A DNA stretch of 64,000 bases from an uncultured Patescibacteria group bacterium (GTDB lineage Bacteria; Patescibacteriota; Patescibacteriia; Veblenbacterales; UBA10138). The notes under the pieces are model-generated. The model was given only the letters and a program-made list of their open reading frames with translations. It did not search any database and was not told the DNA's origin. Of the stretch, positions 3,687 to 56,610 are shown piece by piece; position 1 is the stretch's first letter, and each line of letters begins with the position of its first letter. Position numbers and translations under genes: made by a program. The stretch is taken from NCBI GenBank assembly GCA_937929825.1, contig CALFUV010000008.1, positions 11,838 through 75,837 on the forward strand. The letters are read 5' to 3'.

Positions 3687-5705
3687 ATGGCAAAAGACTT
3701 TAATTTATTAAATGGTCTTAATAAACCACAACAACAGGCAGTTACTATGATAAATGGTCCTGTATTGGTGCTGGCCGGGGCAGGTAGTGGTAAAACAAAA
3801 ACTCTTGTTCATCGTTTGGCATATTTAATTGCCAATGCAGGAGTCTCTCCGGAGAGAATATTGGCCGTTACTTTTACTAATCAGGCAGCCAAAGAGATGC
3901 GACAGCGAGTCCAGGATCTTTTGCCGGGGGAGGTTTCCCGTCAGCCGTTATTGGGGACTTTTCATTCCCTTAGTGCCCGTTGGTTGCGCCAAGAATCTTG
4001 GCGTGTTAATTACCCCATGAATTTTTCAATTTATGATTCTGATGATCAGCTGAGTTTAATAAAGGAGGCTTTAAAAGAGCAAGGAATTGGCTTGAAAGCT
4101 GTTAGTCCCAAAGCTGTTTTGACGGTTATTTCAAGAGCTAAATCAGAATTGGTTACACCGGAAGGTTTTAAAGATTGGACAGAAGACTCCCCATTTTCTA
4201 ATTTAGTTGCTGATATTTACCCTCGTTATCAAAAATTATTAGCACGCGACCGCGCTTTTGATTTTGATGATTTACTTATGAAGATGGTAGAAGTTTGGCA
4301 AACAGATCCCCAGTTGTTAAAAGTTTATCAGGAACGGTATCATTATTTATTAATTGACGAATATCAGGATGTAAATCATGCTCAATATGTTTGGACCAAG
4401 TTGCTTGCTAGCGCTCGGCAAAATTTATGTGTAGTAGGAGATGACTGGCAATCAATTTATTCTTGGCGTGGAGCTGATTTTGGCAATATTTTAAGATTTC
4501 ATGAAGATTATCCTAAAGCCCATGTTATCAAATTGGAGCAGAATTATCGTTCCACTAAAGTGATAATTAAGGCCTCCAATGCTATTATGGCTCAAGCACA
4601 AATGAAGGTGGAAAAAAAATTATGGACCAATAATCCTTTGGGCCAACCATTAAGGATAGTGGCATTAGAGGACGAGGTGGCTGAAGCAAATTTTGTGGTT
4701 GAGGAAATTTTAAAATTTACAAATTCCCCGAAAGAACTTTCTTATGAACCGATTGATGATGTTTTATTGCCATCTATTGGTCATATGCGTCGCTATCATG
4801 GGACAGGAGAAGATTTAAAAGGTTACGCCGTGCTTTATCGTACCAATGCACAAAGCCGTGCCTTAGAAGAAGCTTGTTTGAAAGTAGGCTTGCCTTATCA
4901 GTTGATTGGCGGAATTAGATTTTATGAGCGTAAGGAAATAAAAGACGTTTTGGCTTTTTTGCGCCTGATAATTAACCCTTTTGATGGGCTTAGTTTTCGA
5001 CGAGCCTTGCTTGCCACTGCCAATGGTTTGGGTTTGGTAACCGTTGAAGCTATGCTCATACAGGCTGATAATAAAAAAATATCCCCCTTACAAGTCTGCC
5101 AAGAAAATAGCATTAAAGGAGAACGTGGACGGTTTTTGCGTGAATTTGCTGATTTAATAAATAAATTTTGTCAGGCTGCCCCAAAAGCCAGAGTTTCGGA
5201 AATGATTGATTTAGTGTTGGATAAAAGCGGGCTGGGTAAAGAACTTTTAGAGCAAAGAATTGACGGTGAGACAAGATATGAGAATATTTTGGAATTAAAA
5301 ACTGTAGCTGAAGAAAGAGCATCAGGTATAGGCATAGAATCATTAGCCAATTTTTTGGCAGAAATTGCCTTATGGCAGGATCAGGATGGTTATAAGAATA
5401 ATAAGTGCGGGATTACTTTAATGACATTTCATGCGGCCAAGGGACTGGAATTTGATACTGTATTTATGGTTGGTATGGAAGAAGGTTTGTTTCCACATGC
5501 CTCATCTTTTGCCGATCCAGCTGAACTGGACGAGGAAAGGCGTTTGGCTTATGTTGGTTTAACCCGTGCCCGCCGGCAAGTTTATTGTTTGTATGTTTTT
5601 AACCGTCGTTTATTTGGCTCTCTTAGTCCTAGTTTGCCATCACGCTTTATTACTGAATTGCCGCCAGATTGTGTGGAGTCAGTTATAGCTTCCAGATTTA
5701 TATAA
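3687..5705 (+). CDS. pcrA: ATP-dependent DNA helicase PcrA/UvrD (superfamily 1)
   Basis: Walker A AGAGSGKTKTLVHRLAYLI, helicase motif II LLIDEYQDVNHAQY, motif VGDDWQSIYSWRGA, C-terminal VGLTRARR. Confidence 0.9.
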   Translation: MAKDFNLLNGLNKPQQQAVTMINGPVLVLAGAGSGKTKTLVHRLAYLIANAGVSPERILAVTFTNQAAKEMRQRVQDLLPGEVSRQPLLGTFHSLSARWLRQESWRVNYPMNFSIYDSDDQLSLIKEALKEQGIGLKAVSPKAVLTVISRAKSELVTPEGFKDWTEDSPFSNLVADIYPRYQKLLARDRAFDFDDLLMKMVEVWQTDPQLLKVYQERYHYLLIDEYQDVNHAQYVWTKLLASARQNLCVVGDDWQSIYSWRGADFGNILRFHEDYPKAHVIKLEQNYRSTKVIIKASNAIMAQAQMKVEKKLWTNNPLGQPLRIVALEDEVAEANFVVEEILKFTNSPKELSYEPIDDVLLPSIGHMRRYHGTGEDLKGYAVLYRTNAQSRALEEACLKVGLPYQLIGGIRFYERKEIKDVLAFLRLIINPFDGLSFRRALLATANGLGLVTVEAMLIQADNKKISPLQVCQENSIKGERGRFLREFADLINKFCQAAPKARVSEMIDLVLDKSGLGKELLEQRIDGETRYENILELKTVAEERASGIGIESLANFLAEIALWQDQDGYKNNKCGITLMTFHAAKGLEFDTVFMVGMEEGLFPHASSFADPAELDEERRLAYVGLTRARRQVYCLYVFNRRLFGSLSPSLPSRFITELPPDCVESVIASRFI

Positions 5706-5751: not shown

Positions 5752-5892
5752 TTAGGCGCCCACTCCTAGAGTTTCTTCATCAGTAAATATATCATCAATG
5801 TCTATGTGTGGTTTGCGCTGTCTAGGTTTAAACCCCCAGATTAGTAGGTAACTTAATGTTACCAAGCCAAAACTGAAAAGTAACTTTTTCAT
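5752..5892 (-). CDS. Small ORF (46 aa) with signal-peptide-like N-terminus, missing from the ORF track
   Basis: Minus-strand ATG at 5890-5892 preceded by AAGGAG (TTAAAAGGAGAACTATG). Product MKKLLFSFGLVTLSYLLIWGFKPRQRKPHIDIDDIFTDEETLGVGA, stop at 5752. Confidence 0.35.
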   Translation of the reverse strand: MKKLLFSFGLVTLSYLLIWGFKPRQRKPHIDIDDIFTDEETLGVGA

Positions 5893-5979
5893 AGTTCTCC
5901 TTTTAATTTGATGGTTTTTATTTTTTAGGAAAGCTAATTAGTATAAAGTTTCTAATGTAATTTGTCAAGTATTTCCCCA

Positions 5980-7731
5980 TTAACCTAAGTGTTTTTTAAT
6001 AGCAGAGGCGCGGATAGGGCCGAGTATCTTAGCCAAATCTTGTTCACTAGCTTGGCGCAGGATTTTTACACTACCGAAAGCGGCTTTTAATTTTTTCTTA
6101 AATTTAGGTCCAATACCCGGCAGTTCGTCCCAGGCTGATTTTACTGTTTTTTTACGATGAAGTGAACGATAATAATTTATACCAAAACGATGAGCTTCAT
6201 CGCGCAAAGATTCAAGCAATAAAAGTCCGGGCGCATCAGACTCTAATTTAGTTGGCTTTTTTTTATTTGGCAGGTAAAGTAGTTCTTCCTGTTTAGCCAA
6301 GGCTACTAATGGCACATCAATTTTATAAGCTTTGAATATACGCATAACCGTGGATAATTGGCCCCTGCCGCCATCCAGCATTACCAGATCAGGCCGGGGC
6401 CAGTCTTTGTTAGTAAATCGTCTAGCTAATACCTCAGCCATCATTTTAACATCATTAGGTTTGGCTGGTGCCTGAACTTTAAATTTGCGGTATTGTTTTG
6501 TATCAGGCAGGCCATTAGTCAGCACCACCATAGAGCCAACCGCTTCTTTGCCTTGGATATTGGAAATATCATAGCCCTCAATTCTTTTTGGTATGTGAGT
6601 CAAGCCCAACACTTCTTTTAATTGTTTTAATCCTTGCTGAGCGCGCATTTTTTGCCTTTGCCAACTGGCGACGCTTTGCCGCAGATGATTTTGTGCTGTT
6701 TGATTTGCCAGGTTCAATAATTGTTTTTTAAATCCTCGCTCAGGCAGGTTGAAAGATAATTTTTTAATTGATACCCTCTTTAGTTTAATAGGTAAGTATA
6801 TTTTTTTAATCAAATCAGGGGCGGCTATGGAATATTGCTCTAAAAATTCAGTTAAGATTTCAGCTTCAGCTAATCCTTTAGTTTTATCAAGCAGGAATCT
6901 GTCAGCTTCCAACAAGACACCTTTTCTTATTGGCAATCTGGTAACCGATGCCATATCACCACTACGAGCTAGTCCGTAAATATCAAAAGATTCCCGTGAT
7001 GAACTAACCACACTTTGTTTTATCTTTAATCTTTCCAGAGCTCGAAGCTGATCGCGTAATCGGGCGGCATGTTCATAATCCTTATTTTGGGAAGCTTGTT
7101 TCATCTTTGAATTTAATAATTTGGCAACTTGTATAATCTCACCGCGGAGCAGCTGTTCAAAATATTTTAATTGTTGTAAATAATGTTGTCGGCTGTTTCT
7201 ATTAATATCATGACCTAAACAACGTCCAAGTTCAGCCTGAAAGCAGGGTTTATCAGCAGGCAGAGAGCAGGTTTTAAGGCCAAGGGTTTTTTTGAAAAAA
7301 GGAAATAGTTTACGAATTGAACTAGCTGTCACATAAGGTCCGAATAGTTTAATGTGTTTGGTGAGCGTAGGCCGGCGAACGAACTCTACTGGCGGATATT
7401 TCTCCCTATAATCAATGGTAATATACAGCCAGCTTTTATCATCTTTAAGGTCAATATTAAAGGGTGGTTGGTGTTGCTTGATTAAAGTTCTTTCCAAAAG
7501 CAAAGCTTCCGTTTCATTAGAAACTTCAGTAGTTTGCAAATGGTGAATTTGCTTTACCATCAGTTGTTTAGCAGGAGAGAGCTCGGCACCTTTGTGAAAG
7601 TAATAAAGCACCCGGGAGCGCAAAAATTTGGCCTTGCCCACATAGAGAAGCTTGTTTTTTGCGTCAAAAAACTCATAAACACCCGGCTTTTGCGGCAAGT
7701 TTTTTAGCTGTTGTTGTAAAACGGTTGACAT
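5980..7731 (-). CDS. uvrC: Excinuclease ABC subunit C (UvrC)
   Basis: N-terminal GIY-YIG motif PGVYEFFDAKNKLLYVGKAKFLRSRV, UVR motif region, C-terminal helix-hairpin-helix pair (ELPGIGPKFKKKLKAAFGSV); 583 aa. Confidence 0.9.
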   Translation of the reverse strand: MSTVLQQQLKNLPQKPGVYEFFDAKNKLLYVGKAKFLRSRVLYYFHKGAELSPAKQLMVKQIHHLQTTEVSNETEALLLERTLIKQHQPPFNIDLKDDKSWLYITIDYREKYPPVEFVRRPTLTKHIKLFGPYVTASSIRKLFPFFKKTLGLKTCSLPADKPCFQAELGRCLGHDINRNSRQHYLQQLKYFEQLLRGEIIQVAKLLNSKMKQASQNKDYEHAARLRDQLRALERLKIKQSVVSSSRESFDIYGLARSGDMASVTRLPIRKGVLLEADRFLLDKTKGLAEAEILTEFLEQYSIAAPDLIKKIYLPIKLKRVSIKKLSFNLPERGFKKQLLNLANQTAQNHLRQSVASWQRQKMRAQQGLKQLKEVLGLTHIPKRIEGYDISNIQGKEAVGSMVVLTNGLPDTKQYRKFKVQAPAKPNDVKMMAEVLARRFTNKDWPRPDLVMLDGGRGQLSTVMRIFKAYKIDVPLVALAKQEELLYLPNKKKPTKLESDAPGLLLLESLRDEAHRFGINYYRSLHRKKTVKSAWDELPGIGPKFKKKLKAAFGSVKILRQASEQDLAKILGPIRASAIKKHLG

Positions 7732-15145: not shown

Positions 15146-15170
15146 ATCTGGCATACTAGAACTAGTATTT

Positions 15171-15212
15171 AAATCCCTGCACTAAAAATGCAGGGATTTT
15201 TGTTTATTTTTT
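15171..15212 (+). terminator. Intrinsic terminator after groEL
   Basis: AAATCCCTGCA-ctaaaaa-TGCAGGGATTT followed by TTGTTTATTTTTTT. Confidence 0.7.
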
Positions 15213-15239
15213 TATAAAAAAAAATTATAATTACAATAT

Positions 15240-33450: not shown

Positions 33451-33924
33451 ATTATTTATAATAATTTTTACATTTAGCATATTTTCTAAATTACTGCCCA
33501 ATTCTGATCTAAAAAATTATTACTGCTGAATATAAAGTATTAGATATTTTAGATTTTAAATTACCCACTTTCCCCAATTCATAAAAAATAAGTGAATTAA
33601 TTGTGTGATAAATTTAATTAGGTAGGCTAGGCCAATTAATCTATTTTCATTGTTAGATCGGCCATATTATTTTAGTTCCTTCCTTTTTTATTAGCATTTT
33701 AGGTTTTTATTAGAGCATAAGTAAAGTTGATTGTTACTTAATAGTTAACCGGTCGTAATAAAAATAGCAGGCCCAAGGATCCATATGCCGCTTAATAATT
33801 AATAATTTAAGTTTATGTGTCGGCTGGTTACTGTTTCTATGAATTATTTGATTATTATTAAATAAAGATTTGCTCTTTTATAGTTGGCAGTTTTGGGCTA
33901 GAATAAGGTAACTAAGATTACTTT

Positions 33925-36698: not shown

Positions 36699-36754
36699 AG
36701 TTTCCTTAAAGTAAAATTTTTAAATCGCCACTTCTTTAAATAAGTGGCGCAAGA

Positions 36755-36898
36755 ATCGCCGCCTCGGTCTTCGTGTCATGCAGTGCTCGCCGCACTCACT
36801 AACGAGCCCTATGCATAAAGGTCGTAACACGAGCTCGTTGGCCATTCGCGCGTCTTCCACTCTGCTACTAACACTACGACAGGGCGGCAGAAGATAGT
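36755..36898. ncRNA. Candidate structured RNA element, copy A (GC-rich, about 144 nt; homologous to 55509..55651); strand unknown
   Basis: About 58% GC in an AT-rich intergenic region. About 70% identical to copy B over the same length; central hairpin ACGAGC/GCTCGT (36802-36807 / 36833-36838) corresponds to a covarying stem in B. Confidence 0.4.
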
Positions 36899-36955
36899 TT
36901 CTACTGGAGCCTTTATTAGACACTAGTGTGTTATGTGTTCCATGTTATGTGATAT

Positions 36956-37738
36956 GTGTATAATAAAGTCATGGATTTTGGTTTGAACGTTTCCACTTTA
37001 ATTTTACCAGCATTTTTTGCCGGTATTCTAACTTTTTTGGCACCCTGTACTCTGCCTCTTATCCCCGGTTATTTGGCTTTTATCAGCGGGGTGTCTTTGC
37101 GCGAGTTACAGCAAAAAAATTCAGTTAGTTTACGTCGAAAGGTTTTTTTTAATGGATTATGGTACGTAGTTGGATTTAGTTTAGTTTTCGTTATTTTGGG
37201 TGGAGTTTTTGGTTCTCTTGGTTTGTTATTGGCGCCGTATCGATTACTCTTGGGCAGGTTAGGAGGTATAATAGTGATTTTTTTTGGTCTTTATTTAATT
37301 GGCGTGATTCGTTTGCCTGTACTTTTAGGTGAACATAAATTGCACTTAGAGCGTTTTTTACGTCCGGGCTATAAAACTTCTTCATTTCTGTTCGGCGCCA
37401 CTTTTGCTTTTGGTTGGACGCCTTGCATTGGGCCAATTTTAGCCTCCATTTTGTTATTAGCTTCTTATTCTGCTACTGCCGCCAAAGGTGCTTTTTTGTT
37501 GTTGGTTTTTGCCGCTGGATTAGCCGTGCCGTTTTTATTGTTGGCTTGGGGCGTAGGTGCGGTGTCGCGTTATCTTGTTAAGCTTGGGCCTTATTTAAAA
37601 TTATTATCTGTTATTGGCGGCATTTTACTGGTTTTAATAGGTTTTCTTTTACTGAGTAATAAGTTTGGTTGGTGGTTGCAATGGGCTTATAAAATTTTTG
37701 GTTTTTTAAATTACCAAGTTTTGTTAAAGTATTTATAA
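36956..37738 (+). CDS. ccdA: Cytochrome c-type biogenesis protein CcdA / DsbD transmembrane domain (paralog 2)
   Basis: FFAGILTFLAPCTLPLIPGY (TM1) and GWTPCIGPIL (TM4), the canonical CcdA motifs. Confidence 0.8.
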   Translation: MYNKVMDFGLNVSTLILPAFFAGILTFLAPCTLPLIPGYLAFISGVSLRELQQKNSVSLRRKVFFNGLWYVVGFSLVFVILGGVFGSLGLLLAPYRLLLGRLGGIIVIFFGLYLIGVIRLPVLLGEHKLHLERFLRPGYKTSSFLFGATFAFGWTPCIGPILASILLLASYSATAAKGAFLLLVFAAGLAVPFLLLAWGVGAVSRYLVKLGPYLKLLSVIGGILLVLIGFLLLSNKFGWWLQWAYKIFGFLNYQVLLKYL

Positions 37739-54163: not shown

Positions 54164-55471
54164 ATGCAGCCATTAAAAATTTTAGCAGATAATTTTGTTA
54201 ACCCTCATAGTAATAACCATAAAACAGCTTGGTATGCTTGGAGTGGCGCGGCTTTAGCTTTGCTAGCATTAGCTAGTGGACTTTATTTTTTTTATTCTTT
54301 AACAGAACAGAAATCAGAGTCAAAAAAAATTTATTATAACCCCAATTTAAGAATTATCTTGGCCTATCCAACTACTTGGCTACCGGTGCCAATACTACAG
54401 GATAATGATGGTTTACCCCGTCGTTTTGAGGGTAAGAGCGGCTGGTTTGAGGTAAGCGCTACTTCAGGCGAGGGGGTTATTTTAACAGAAATAGCTTCCA
54501 GTCTTAATCAAGTTTATGATTTGCCTTTTGGTGCTAATCCACAAATAAATACTGTTAAAATAGCCGGTCAGCCCGGTGCAATGATTGTACCTACTGAAGA
54601 TGGCATAAACCAAGCGGCGGCCGTGATTACCTACCCTGAGCCGGTATTAGTAGGTTTAACAAGTTATCGTTTTTTTATAATAAGATTTGATAAAAATCAT
54701 GCTGTTAATATTTTGAATTCATTGAAATTTATAAGTGATGATGCGATAGAAACAGAAAATTTACCTAATATAATGGTTTATAGTCCGCCACGATTGGCTA
54801 TAATTAATAGTCCTTTTGAGGTAGCTGGCGTTGCCCGCACTACTGATAATGTGCTTAGTCTTAGGATTTTAAATAGTAAAAAACAAGTTATTTGGACAGG
54901 GTCAACAGCAGTTAGTTCTGCAAAAAATGGAAGTTGGGGAGCTTTTAATGCACTGGTTAATTTAAGCGGAGCAGAAATAATCTCCGGTGAAATTATTGAA
55001 CTTCAGGTTTATTACAATCCAGCTTCTGAAACAAGAGAAATGGATAAAGTGGTTATACCCTTGCAGTTAAGGGAAATAAAAGCTATGCAGGTAGTTGAGG
55101 TTTATTTTGGTTCTGTAAAAGCGCCATCTGGTGAAGAGTGTAATTCTGTTTATGCGATTGAGCGTTATGTATCGGAAACAGAATCTTTAGCCCAAGCGGC
55201 AATAATTGAATTACTAAAAGGGCCTAACTTACAAGAAAGGCAAAATGGTTATTTTACCAGCTTGCCACCGGGTGTGGTATTAAATAAGCTGGTAATTGAA
55301 AACGGTTTAGCTAGTATTGATTTTAATGAAAATTTGGAAAGAGGAGTGGGCGGATCATGCCGTGTGCTGTCTATACGTAAGCAAATAGAAAAAACCTTAC
55401 AACAGTTTCCTTCAGTGAAGGATGTGAAAATTTCTATTAATGGTCGAACGGAAGATATTTTGCAACCATAA
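54164..55471 (+). CDS. Anchored protein with an immunoglobulin-like (Gmad2-type) domain and a C-terminal GerMN domain
   Basis: TM anchor; IMVYSPPRLAIINSPFEVAGVARTTDNVLSLRILNSKKQVIWTG (Gmad2-like beta domain); C-terminal AIIELLKGPNLQERQNGYFTSLPPG...ASIDFNENL (GerMN). Confidence 0.5.
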   Translation: MQPLKILADNFVNPHSNNHKTAWYAWSGAALALLALASGLYFFYSLTEQKSESKKIYYNPNLRIILAYPTTWLPVPILQDNDGLPRRFEGKSGWFEVSATSGEGVILTEIASSLNQVYDLPFGANPQINTVKIAGQPGAMIVPTEDGINQAAAVITYPEPVLVGLTSYRFFIIRFDKNHAVNILNSLKFISDDAIETENLPNIMVYSPPRLAIINSPFEVAGVARTTDNVLSLRILNSKKQVIWTGSTAVSSAKNGSWGAFNALVNLSGAEIISGEIIELQVYYNPASETREMDKVVIPLQLREIKAMQVVEVYFGSVKAPSGEECNSVYAIERYVSETESLAQAAIIELLKGPNLQERQNGYFTSLPPGVVLNKLVIENGLASIDFNENLERGVGGSCRVLSIRKQIEKTLQQFPSVKDVKISINGRTEDILQP

Positions 55472-55508
55472 AACTTAATGTTACTTTTCTAGGAAAAGTA
55501 ACACAAAA

Positions 55509-55651
55509 GTCGCCGCACAGGTCTGCGGCTCTACAGTACTTGCCAGTTTCATTGTCTGGCGCTATGCACAGTCGGCCATAAACACGCGCCAGACGGCTGT
55601 TCGCCTGGTTTGCGTTCTGTAACAAGCCTCCGACATGGCGGCAAAATAATG
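55509..55651. ncRNA. Candidate structured RNA element, copy B (GC-rich, about 143 nt; homologous to 36755..36898); strand unknown
   Basis: About 55% GC. 9-bp stem GTCTGGCGC/GCGCCAGAC (55554-55562 / 55586-55594) enclosing a loop that is conserved with copy A; the 5' and 3' termini are also conserved with copy A. Confidence 0.4.
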
Positions 55652-55665
55652 CTAGAAAATATTTT

Positions 55666-56610
55666 TCACTGCCACTTATACATCTCATCAGCCCAGAGAC
55701 GGAGAGCATTCATGGCATGTTCTGATTCGGCCCGGGTAGGGGATGTAAGTACAGCGGCACAAAGACGACGACCAGAAGGTGTAATTATACCAGCTGCCAA
55801 ATGATATTTGGTTTCGTGTAAATAGCCTGTTTTGGCGCCAAAATAACGATTTGGATTATTTCTGACATCATAAACCGTGTGTAATACTGTTTTTCTTACC
55901 CCACCTTTGGTGGTGAAACTAACAGAAGGCGAGGATCCGTAAAATGAAGAAATAAAATTATGATAATACAAAGCACAGGCAGCATGAGCCATATCAGCGG
56001 CAGAGGAGGTATTGGCTAATGATAAGCCGGAAGGTTCATCTATCTTGGTTCGTGTTAAGCCCCAATCGGCTGCGGTAGTGCGCATAGCTTCAATAAATTC
56101 TGTACGCTCTAAACCAACACCTCTGCCTATACTTACAGCGGCATTATTTGCTGAACCTATGAGCATACTGGCAAAAGCTTGTTCAAGAGTTATCTGGTCT
56201 CCATTCTCAAGTTTTAATAGGGAAAAACTATCTTTGGGGCCAACGTAAGGGCGTAATAAATTTTCATTGTCATTAAGGGTAAAATTTAAGGGTGTATACC
56301 AATTTGGTTCATACTTAAGCAGAGTGCCGGCTGTTATCATTTTTATCAAACTGGCAGTAGGCATAACCGTATTTTCTTGATGGAAATAAAGTGGATAGCC
56401 AGTTGAGGCATCAAATAGGGCAGCAGCACGATAAGGTAAGGTTTTTAAATTATATTTTTTTAAATACCACCGGGTAAAATCTTCATAGTTAGCAACAGCT
56501 TGCGGATAAATTATTTCAGCTTGTGTTGCTGGAGTAATAATTACCAAAGTAAAACTTATAGTAGTGACAAATAAGACTATTATTAATATTAAATAATTAT
56601 TTTTACGCAT
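55666..56610 (-). CDS. dacA: D-alanyl-D-alanine carboxypeptidase (serine-type, peptidase S11 / PBP5-like)
   Basis: Signal/anchor, then SxxK (ASLIKM), SxN (GSANNA) and KTG (GAKTGYL) motifs in the correct order. Confidence 0.7.
   Translation of the reverse strand: MRKNNYLILIIVLFVTTISFTLVIITPATQAEIIYPQAVANYEDFTRWYLKKYNLKTLPYRAAALFDASTGYPLYFHQENTVMPTASLIKMITAGTLLKYEPNWYTPLNFTLNDNENLLRPYVGPKDSFSLLKLENGDQITLEQAFASMLIGSANNAAVSIGRGVGLERTEFIEAMRTTAADWGLTRTKIDEPSGLSLANTSSAADMAHAACALYYHNFISSFYGSSPSVSFTTKGGVRKTVLHTVYDVRNNPNRYFGAKTGYLHETKYHLAAGIITPSGRRLCAAVLTSPTRAESEHAMNALRLWADEMYKWQ

Follow-up and report, generated by a model that had tools for sequence, protein, structure and literature searches.

The 64-kb window analysed here, to the whole of which all window-wide statements refer, comes from an uncultured Patescibacteria group bacterium (contig CALFUV010000008.1 of assembly GCA_937929825.1) and carries two copies, A and B, of a GC-rich, hairpin-forming intergenic element. 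Copy B, the subject of this report, occupies the spacer between two convergent stop codons 194 nt apart, which belong to a gene for a 435-aa protein with GerMN and Gmad2 domains (GerMN435) and to a Peptidase_S11 (DacA-like) gene. Copy A lies between a shorter GerMN-domain gene and a CcdA/DsbD_TM gene (Table 1). Among named organisms, the flanking window proteins are closest to those of Candidatus Veblenbacteria, Kerfeldbacteria and 'Patescibacteria group' metagenome-assembled genomes (MAGs), which marks the window as part of a genome of the candidate phyla radiation (CPR).

An earlier note, made from the letters of the window alone, had described copy B as a structured element with a nine-bp central stem and a homologue in copy A. 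The gene ends that it placed at 55471 and 55666 are correct, and both copies have the elevated GC content that it reported (56%, versus 37% for the window). In copy B the stem arms GTCTGGCGC (55554-55562) and GCGCCAGAC (55586-55594) are perfectly reverse-complementary and the loop enclosed by this stem reads TATGCACAGTCGGCCATAAACAC, as noted; in copy A, ACGAGC at 36802 and GCTCGT at 36833 form the same helix with different letters. The local hairpin GCCGCA-caggtc-TGCGGC was found at 55512-55529. Globally aligned (36756-36889 with 55510-55643), the two copies share 64% identity, versus 51 ± 2% (maximum 57%) in 1000 shuffles, with an alignment score of 34 versus -15.8 ± 5.7; homology beyond chance was therefore upheld, but the earlier figure of about 70% identity was too high. 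When both copies were folded jointly with RNAalifold, a long rod common to them appeared, and on either strand it had 11-12 compensatory pairs. The proposal that constraint acts on the element itself, without a recent segmental duplication, is supported; the 190-aa and 435-aa GerMN proteins share 31% identity across 137 aa. The minus-strand open reading frames (ORFs) 55437..55709 and 36720..36923 exist and, as had been argued, hold no conserved peptide. A coding function was rejected for the element, as every frame is interrupted by a stop in some member of the family and copies differ by 1-2 nt in length.

The earlier note did not mention a small perfect hairpin 5' of each copy (55479-55503 in B, 36726-36749 in A), which is part of the element and which we call H0. 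In copy B, H0 begins 2 nt past the GerMN435 stop codon. Its core stem (55479-55489 / 55493-55503) closes a TAG loop, and an outer stem, in which ACTT (55473-55476) pairs with AAGT (55507-55510), overlaps the CAAAAG linker and extends the hairpin to 55473-55510. The rod that follows is built of five helical segments with conserved internal loops, and the nine-bp stem carries its apical loop, CTATGC..ACACG. Copy B folds with z = -5.2 on the plus strand and -5.5 on the minus strand relative to dinucleotide shuffles, and with z = -4.0 under DNA parameters. There were no copies in the window beyond A and B by nhmmer, blastn, covariance model or a regular expression for H0 and the loop motif, and the remaining GC-rich islands fall within ORFs.

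Table 1. Coordinates of the two copies, their neighbouring genes and related features at other loci. Positions refer to the window unless a locus number (L) is given.
Feature	Position	Strand or orientation	Evidence and remarks
Copy B, H0 (AU-rich perfect hairpin)	55473..55510		Fold of 55472-55650
Copy B, GC-rich rod	55510..55643	H0 side at low coordinate	Covariance model R1 match 55510-55642, 104 bits, E 2e-21
Copy A, H0 and linker	36726..36755		H0 CGCCACTT-ctttaaat-AAGTGGCG at 36726-36749; linker CAAGAA at 36750-36755
Copy A, GC-rich rod	36756..36889	As copy B	R1 match 36756-36888, 116 bits, E 3e-24
GerMN + Gmad2 domain gene (GerMN435), 435 aa	54164..55471	+	Pfam Germane 2.5e-18, Gmad2 2.3e-08; stop codon abuts H0 side of copy B
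Peptidase_S11 (DacA-like) gene	55666..56610	-	Pfam 6.8e-23; convergent with GerMN435; stop codon 23 nt from rod end
Short GerMN-domain gene, 190 aa	36126..36698	+	Pfam Germane 3.3e-12; upstream of copy A
CcdA/DsbD_TM gene with conserved promoter/leader block	36924..37738	+	Block 36924-36969, ATG 36971; downstream of copy A
E3 family	L070 3112-3290; also L072, L086, L089, L093, L104, L105
E2 family	L067 691-878; L065 1270-1520; L074 ~960-1265; L061 902-1018	L074 reverse
20-nt palindrome in apical loop	L084 ~5390; L097, L099, L073, L074
20-nt palindrome in internal loop	L056 2968-3119; L037 396-548; L080
20-nt palindrome alone	L092 ~2600		In element-empty spacer

Distribution and composition of the repeat family

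From the blocks common to A and B (TCGCCGCNNNGGTCT ... CGACANGGCGGC) we composed a search pattern and ran it against prokaryotic genomes, each species being represented by one. Matches of 133-134 nt came from four CPR MAGs, with three in Veblenbacteria, six in Patescibacteria H52-bin160_1, one in Kerfeldbacteria and 21 in CAYGDX01; the other matches were length-heterogeneous and arose by chance in GC-rich genomes. Covariance model R1 added copies missed by the exact pattern, including variants of 151-153 nt and 237 nt, for a total of ~60 distinct copies in Veblenbacteria, Kerfeldbacteria and related Patescibacteria MAGs. By this model CAYGDX01 (~1 Mb of contigs) has at least 24 copies, and the copy density is about one per 30-40 kb. 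CAYGDX01 (CAYGDX010000001-4, loci L010...L062) is publicly labelled 'uncultured Gammaproteobacteria'. That label looks wrong, since locus L035 is syntenic with 11-18 kb of the window at 70-78% nucleotide identity and the CPR repeat family is present.

The complete unit consists of a T-rich stretch, the perfect AU-rich hairpin H0, a CAARAG linker, 'TC', a GC-rich rod of ~133 nt and a final 'A'. In the orientation of the search pattern, H0 stands directly 5' of TCGCC in every copy, and it occurs in covarying flavours, ACCACTTCTC-TAGA-GAAGTGGT or TGTTACTTTT-TATA-AAAGTAACA, followed by a CAAGAG or CAAAAG linker. All 67 of the H0 hairpins in the fetched CPR loci were joined to the linker and TCGC. 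A metagenome scan with the H0 and linker pattern recovered mostly rods, together with a second hairpin family, E3, of ~150 nt. E3 is less GC-rich (TCGCGACC...GGTCGCA) and has the same start (H0, CAAAAG and TC) with an unrelated interior. A third family, E2, comprises GC-rich structured elements of ~190-250 nt that have their own H0-like hairpin, TTTTG and TCGC, and contain a hairpin with the same CTATGC..ACACG loop; in L065, L067 and L074 they stand tail-to-tail with rods. As the rod, E2 and E3 families are all headed by it, H0 with its linker is the common module of a superfamily.

Other modules accompany some rods. About half of the rods in CAYGDX01 / JBBTZY01 have on their 3' side an AT-rich tail repeat of 50-60 nt, built of iterated GGATTT units (GAATTGGGATTTGGnAATTATTTCGGATTTCGATATTCG). 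Examples are in L052, L047, L061 and L038 (4428-4481 and 726-779); the repeat also occurs away from rods and is absent from the window. In L015, L032, L055, L056 and L062 a recurrent hairpin, GTCATTCCCGCGnAGGCGGGAATC followed by AGAAATTAAAATTA..TTTT, lies ~30-60 nt 5' of H0, and in the genome with this hairpin the repeats are mosaics of several modules.

With Rfam 15 at the gathering threshold the window yielded three tRNAs only, in line with the three ordinary tRNAs found by ARAGORN, and at E ≤ 10 both copies gave just chance-level matches of 15-18 bits; E2 and E3 were likewise without an Rfam match, and the Rfam models for IS605-orfB and HEARO did not match the element. Neither a blastn search (word size 11) of 5,426 complete Escherichia coli genomes nor blastn against plasmid and phage collections returned a match. 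A phage origin was rejected, the only two pattern matches in viral contigs being GC-rich chance matches of 14 bits and the phage blastn search being empty. We found no description of the element in the literature on repeats, miniature inverted-repeat transposable elements (MITEs), repetitive extragenic palindromic (REP) elements or structured RNAs in CPR, Patescibacteria or Parcubacteria. The earlier note had counted a match to a known repeat or MITE against its own reading. This objection holds in part: the element does recur in many dispersed copies, yet no known repeat was found to match it. The family is an undescribed multi-copy, hairpin-forming intergenic repeat of many ultra-small Patescibacteria/CPR bacteria. 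Palindromic intergenic repeats as such are well known, and what is new here is the lack of matches, the bipartite plan common to three unrelated hairpin families, and the CPR hosts.

Base-pairing, genomic context and turnover

Base-pairing in the rod is kept by unusually many compensatory changes. In an alignment of 59 copies (56 distinct), 94.1% of pair cells form standard pairs, and 33 of the 38 pairs change on both sides, with 408 double-change cells; a seed alignment of 29 sequences gives the same picture. None of 500 shuffles matched the observed values, and sliding the 3' partner by 1-3 columns left 32-40% of cells paired. The rod (~133 nt) has five helical segments with conserved asymmetric internal loops between them and the apical loop CTATGC-N-CCACA(A)CACG. 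Its two inner helices are hypervariable in their letters and keep their complementarity, and the outer helix also compensates in more distant members (GCCACC/GGTGGC and GCGGCC/GGCCGC). Wobble pairs are scarce on both strands (G:T 36 and A:C 56 of 2119 cells), a difference that gives only a weak bias for assigning the strand.

All copies are intergenic and their neighbours are unrelated housekeeping genes, among them gyrA, topA, ftsH, ftsZ and the genes for aminoacyl-tRNA synthetases, EF-G and ribosomal protein S7. The spacers of 46 copies were co-directional in 35 cases, convergent in 11 and divergent in none. In the background of the same loci (160 co-directional, 42 convergent and 33 divergent spacers) divergent spacers make up 14%, so that ~6.5 copies would be expected in them (P about 0.001, with crude gene calls). 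Every copy therefore lies downstream of at least one gene, and its distance to a stop codon is typically no more than a few tens of bases. The two orientations relative to adjacent genes are about equally common, and orientation is unbiased with respect to GC skew (29:21).

We considered whether each copy might be the gene of an independently transcribed, trans-acting structured small RNA (sRNA), for instance a protein-binding or sponge RNA, with the conserved loops as binding sites. The exceptionally strong covariation, the conserved blocks over the entire rod and the retention of copies with compensatory evolution at orthologous loci would all suit such a family. Folding energy is better on the reverse strand, on which copy B reads as rod, CUUUUG, H0 and U-rich tail, and the mismatches lean slightly towards A:C, which on that strand would be G:U wobbles. 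However, since copy B fills the spacer between two stop codons, it has no room for a promoter of its own on either strand, and the flanks of ~40 copies share no conserved motif that resembles a promoter or a terminator. On the minus strand of copy B the rod-end hairpin is followed by GACTTTTGTG and H0 by TAAGTTTTAT; in type-1 copies the linker is CTCTTGC. In most genomes H0 is followed on the reverse strand by an A-run, which is not a terminator, and on the other strand there is no T-run 3' of the rod. Wobble pairs make up less than 3% of cells on both strands, 25-30 paralogous sRNA genes in a genome of ~1 Mb would be unprecedented, and chimeric, truncated and insertion-bearing copies exist. 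An sRNA family thus appears quite improbable, and a stand-alone, 6S-like sRNA gene was rejected on the same grounds of promoter space, flank motifs and copy number.

The earlier note had also tied the element to GerMN genes, implicitly as their cis-regulatory RNA. Both window copies do follow GerMN-domain genes, and GerMN435 orthologues in L084, L101 and L103 have the element in the same position. However, no GerMN-like protein is encoded by any of the 61 ORFs beside 34 copies from other genomes, a GerMN435 orthologue occurs without the element (L002-L004), the site upstream of CcdA is filled in relatives in either orientation, and copies show no preferred orientation relative to their neighbours. 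As the copy B locus is syntenic, the recurrence of GerMN435 upstream of the copy B orthologues reflects the history of the locus instead of function. A GerMN-specific role is refuted as a general rule, and we give it next to no credence.

The element persists at one locus across deep divergence, yet differs in presence between lineages at the same site. The gene order PlsY, GerMN435, element, DacA, DoxX of the copy B locus recurs in a related lineage (L084, L094, L097, L099, L103), whose DacA is 75% and GerMN435 55-59% identical to the window proteins. In this lineage, with the site filled in L084, L094 and L103, H0 and rod have the identical place and orientation and the same apical stem (TCTGGCGC), with compensatory differences in the other helices, and the spacer around the element cannot be aligned with the window. 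In L002-L004, from a lineage at a similar distance, the GerMN435-DacA spacer measures 65 nt and contains neither H0 nor rod. At a second site the element is present in L080 and L046 and absent from L092. Upstream of CcdA a rod occurs in four of four relatives, once in the same orientation, next to a near-identical CcdA promoter block, and three times flipped (two of the flipped loci, L067 and L069, are identical in sequence); the copies at the CcdA locus do not group together as closest relatives. Near-identical rod subtypes are found at unrelated loci in the CAYGDX01 and H52 genomes, paired with different H0 flavours. In the window's own lineage the copies are 56-77% alike and do not cluster by locus.

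Insertions and recombination events concentrate in the apical loop. A perfect 20-nt palindrome (CCTGCCTGCC|GGCAGGCAGG) is inserted exactly at CTA^TGC of the loop and is absent from contigs with 100% identical flanks (other positions in Table 1). The breakpoint of a rearrangement falls at the same spot in L101, and the copy at L047:1805 is chimeric, switching from one rod subtype to another in the loop. In L075 and L090 the palindrome encloses ~100 nt of AT-rich sequence, so that it may mark the two ends of a further tiny element. Defective and compound copies also occur: L087 (4257-4357) has a 71-nt tandem duplication comprising the 5' flank, H0, linker and first 22 nt of the rod, the rod of L081 is truncated after ~25 nt, and in L091/L096 two different rods stand tail-to-tail with H0 outward (1799-1932 on the plus strand and 1965-2099 on the minus strand). 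Such doublets account for only about 5 of 60 copies.

These rearrangements bear on the possibility that the element acts as DNA, its hairpin, cruciform or H0 palindrome being used by a recombinase, nuclease, nucleoid protein or single-stranded DNA enzyme, with pairing kept by a process such as intrastrand templated repair or gene conversion and not by selection on RNA. Consistent with this, the stem changes are almost all double and G:T or A:C cells hardly occur, the fold is as good on one strand as on the other and is significant with DNA parameters too, and breakpoints, chimeras and the palindromic insertion all fall at the hairpin tip; modules have been shuffled between copies, and tail-to-tail doublets have H0 outward. 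Nevertheless, enzymes acting on the lagging-strand template would tend to give a GC-skew orientation bias, and none is seen; the asymmetric internal loops are conserved, as are the bulges, and no 'repair' has turned the rod into a perfect palindrome; the avoidance of divergent promoter spacers points to an interplay with transcription; and we found no candidate enzyme gene nearby. On this evidence a purely DNA-level site seems unlikely.

Other features of these loci were recorded alongside. The block between copy A and CcdA (window 36924-36969, L066 ~205-250) consists of iterated TGTTATGTG units ending in TGTGTATAAT just before the CcdA start codon. It is near-identical in the orthologous locus L066, where a rod also sits upstream, although the CcdA proteins of the two genomes share only 69% identity, and it is probably a strongly constrained promoter or operator. 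At 33451-33924 the window has a 474-nt AT-rich gap between two plus-strand genes, without an ORF of at least 60 aa and without a gathering-threshold Rfam or tRNA match.

Proposed mode of spread and comparison with known repeats

On balance, we lean towards regarding copy B as a resident copy of a new superfamily of bipartite palindromic repeats, similar in kind to REP elements, enterobacterial repetitive intergenic consensus (ERIC) sequences and MITEs, and probably transcribed within 3' untranslated regions (UTRs). The elements would be non-autonomous palindromic DNA that spreads or once spread. In some lineages this would have happened recently, in that of the window long ago, and copies would recombine with one another. 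Being common to three otherwise unrelated rod families, H0 with its linker would be the recognised module. Copies may survive only where transcription from an adjacent gene runs across the spacer. In such transcripts the hairpin, being very stable, would serve at the mRNA 3' end or between cistrons, or would simply be tolerated there, in the manner of ERIC and of REP and its mosaic clusters (bacterial interspersed mosaic elements, BIMEs). If survival depends on read-through, the convergent GerMN435 and DacA-like transcripts would share copy B as their 3'-end structure. The route of mobilisation and the role of H0 belong to the inferred part of this account.

Several observations weigh against this interpretation. 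Neither a transposase nor any other recurrent gene was found among 128 representative ORFs neighbouring copies. A reverse transcriptase as partner was rejected, as both nearby RVT_1 genes belong to diversity-generating retroelements (DGRs) with template and variable repeat (TR/VR) pairs. The unit has no terminal inverted repeats (TIRs) beyond the 6-7 bp P1 helix, which itself covaries, and no target-site duplication (TSD): the longest word shared by a copy's own flanks averages 4.67 nt, versus 4.70 ± 0.20 nt for re-paired flanks. We saw no insertion polymorphism of a whole element among near-identical strains or contigs, the only polymorphisms among near-identical contigs being the 20-nt palindrome, the 71-nt duplication and one rearrangement. 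Conserved sequence motifs run along the whole rod, not only its ends, and orthologous copies compensate in place; such a pattern would be less expected of junk DNA than of a functional RNA or a site bound by protein. Canonical hairpin and T-run terminators exist elsewhere in the window (for example at ~15170-15215, after a chaperonin-like gene), whereas the rod has no consistent T-run. Finally, read-through transcription and an effect on mRNA 3' ends are steps that we infer.

Transposases were absent from the top 25 recurrent Pfam families of 61 + 128 neighbouring ORFs, and the recurrent ORF clusters near copies were syntenic housekeeping genes or spurious ORFs across rods. The two DGRs sit a few kb from rod copies, with no apparent link to the element. 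In L075 the repeats (5450-5542 and 5880-5972, the variable and template copies differing at template adenines) accompany a reverse transcriptase gene at 6358-7416 (~350-aa RVT_1), and in L038 a 131-nt repeat pair (2291-2421 and 2819-2949, 87% identical), presumably likewise template and variable copies, lies beside an RVT_1 gene at 873-1925.

Like classical MITEs, the element is short, non-coding and dispersed in many copies, near-identical ones occurring at unrelated loci. As in Correia/NEMIS, RUP and Nezha, near-identical subfamilies occupy unrelated loci and sites are filled or empty by lineage. Unlike these, the element has no TSD and no TIRs of ~10 bp or more, and its ends are asymmetric, with H0 at one end only; no parent insertion sequence was seen near copies. 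ERIC sequences, also called intergenic repeat units (IRUs), are imperfect palindromes of ~127 bp in transcribed intergenic regions of Enterobacteria. They resemble the element in size, long imperfect hairpin, strictly intergenic location, occurrence in either orientation, tens of copies per genome and compensatory pairing. The element differs in lacking sequence similarity to them, in belonging to another phylum, and in its bipartite plan with an obligatory AU-rich H0 common to several unrelated rods.

REP, BIME and REPIN sequences, which are mobilised by the RAYT transposase (a Y1 HUH enzyme), are likewise extragenic palindromes 3' of genes or between co-transcribed genes, lack TIRs and target duplications and form inverted doublets, and the role of REP as a stabiliser of mRNA 3' ends is the template for the role proposed here. 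However, REPs are 20-40 nt long with a conserved 5' GTAG and occur mostly as inverted pairs, whereas H0 measures 22-25 nt, is preceded by a T-run, lacks GTAG and is always fused to a 133-nt rod, and copies of the element are mostly singletons. No RAYT gene was seen within the 8-kb loci around copies. Yeast mitochondrial GC clusters and Rickettsia palindromic elements (RPEs) are also GC-rich palindromes in small AT-rich genomes with nested insertions, as of CCTGCCTGCC|GGCAGGCAGG within rods. However, RPEs insert into coding regions whereas the element is strictly intergenic, GC clusters are shorter and have no H0-like module, and hosts and sequences are unrelated.

Palindrome-associated elements (PATEs) derived from IS200/IS605, including the scaffolds of TnpB omega-RNAs, share asymmetric ends, a subterminal hairpin, the lack of TIR and TSD, and a structured, GC-rich, RNA-like domain. 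They differ in that the element has a small hairpin at one end only, a single H0 per unit, and no strand-skew orientation bias. In addition, its T-rich 5' flank pairs with the linker and contains no fixed target word, and no TnpA or TnpB was seen nearby. An integron attC site was rejected, since the ends (TCGCCGCC and GGCGGCA) lack R''/R' core sites (RYYYAAC / GTTRRRY) and the copies, unlike cassettes in an array, lie tens of kb apart between housekeeping genes.

Significance for Patescibacteria

The genomes of CPR/Patescibacteria are tiny, streamlined and thought to be poor in repeats, and to our knowledge almost nothing is known of their non-coding RNA biology. In such genomes a repeat superfamily that fills ~0.5% of the sequence is notable. 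The covariation of the rod matches or exceeds that of many curated RNA families, and the element is kept at orthologous sites across deep divergence. As breakpoints fall at the hairpin tip, the element is also a marker of genome rearrangement in these lineages. Annotation pipelines should be used with caution around it, since spurious ORFs are called across rods (for example 55437..55709 in the window and a 55-aa 'gene' at L066 1-168).

The family supplies an alignment with which the reader of the hairpin, be it a transposase, an RNA-binding protein or a nuclease, can be sought and tested. More speculatively, and on the doubtful side, the H0-headed rods, E2 and E3 could together form a new, CPR-specific class of element, either a protein-bound 3'-UTR RNA module that controls transcript ends or a mobile element, with the rod as the specific ligand of a conserved CPR protein. 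If the class is mobile, an AU-rich hairpin with a CAARAG linker and a long hairpin of any kind would be enough for movement, and neither TIRs nor target duplications would be involved. If it acts in 3' UTRs, it would provide control of transcript ends in genomes that have few regulators.

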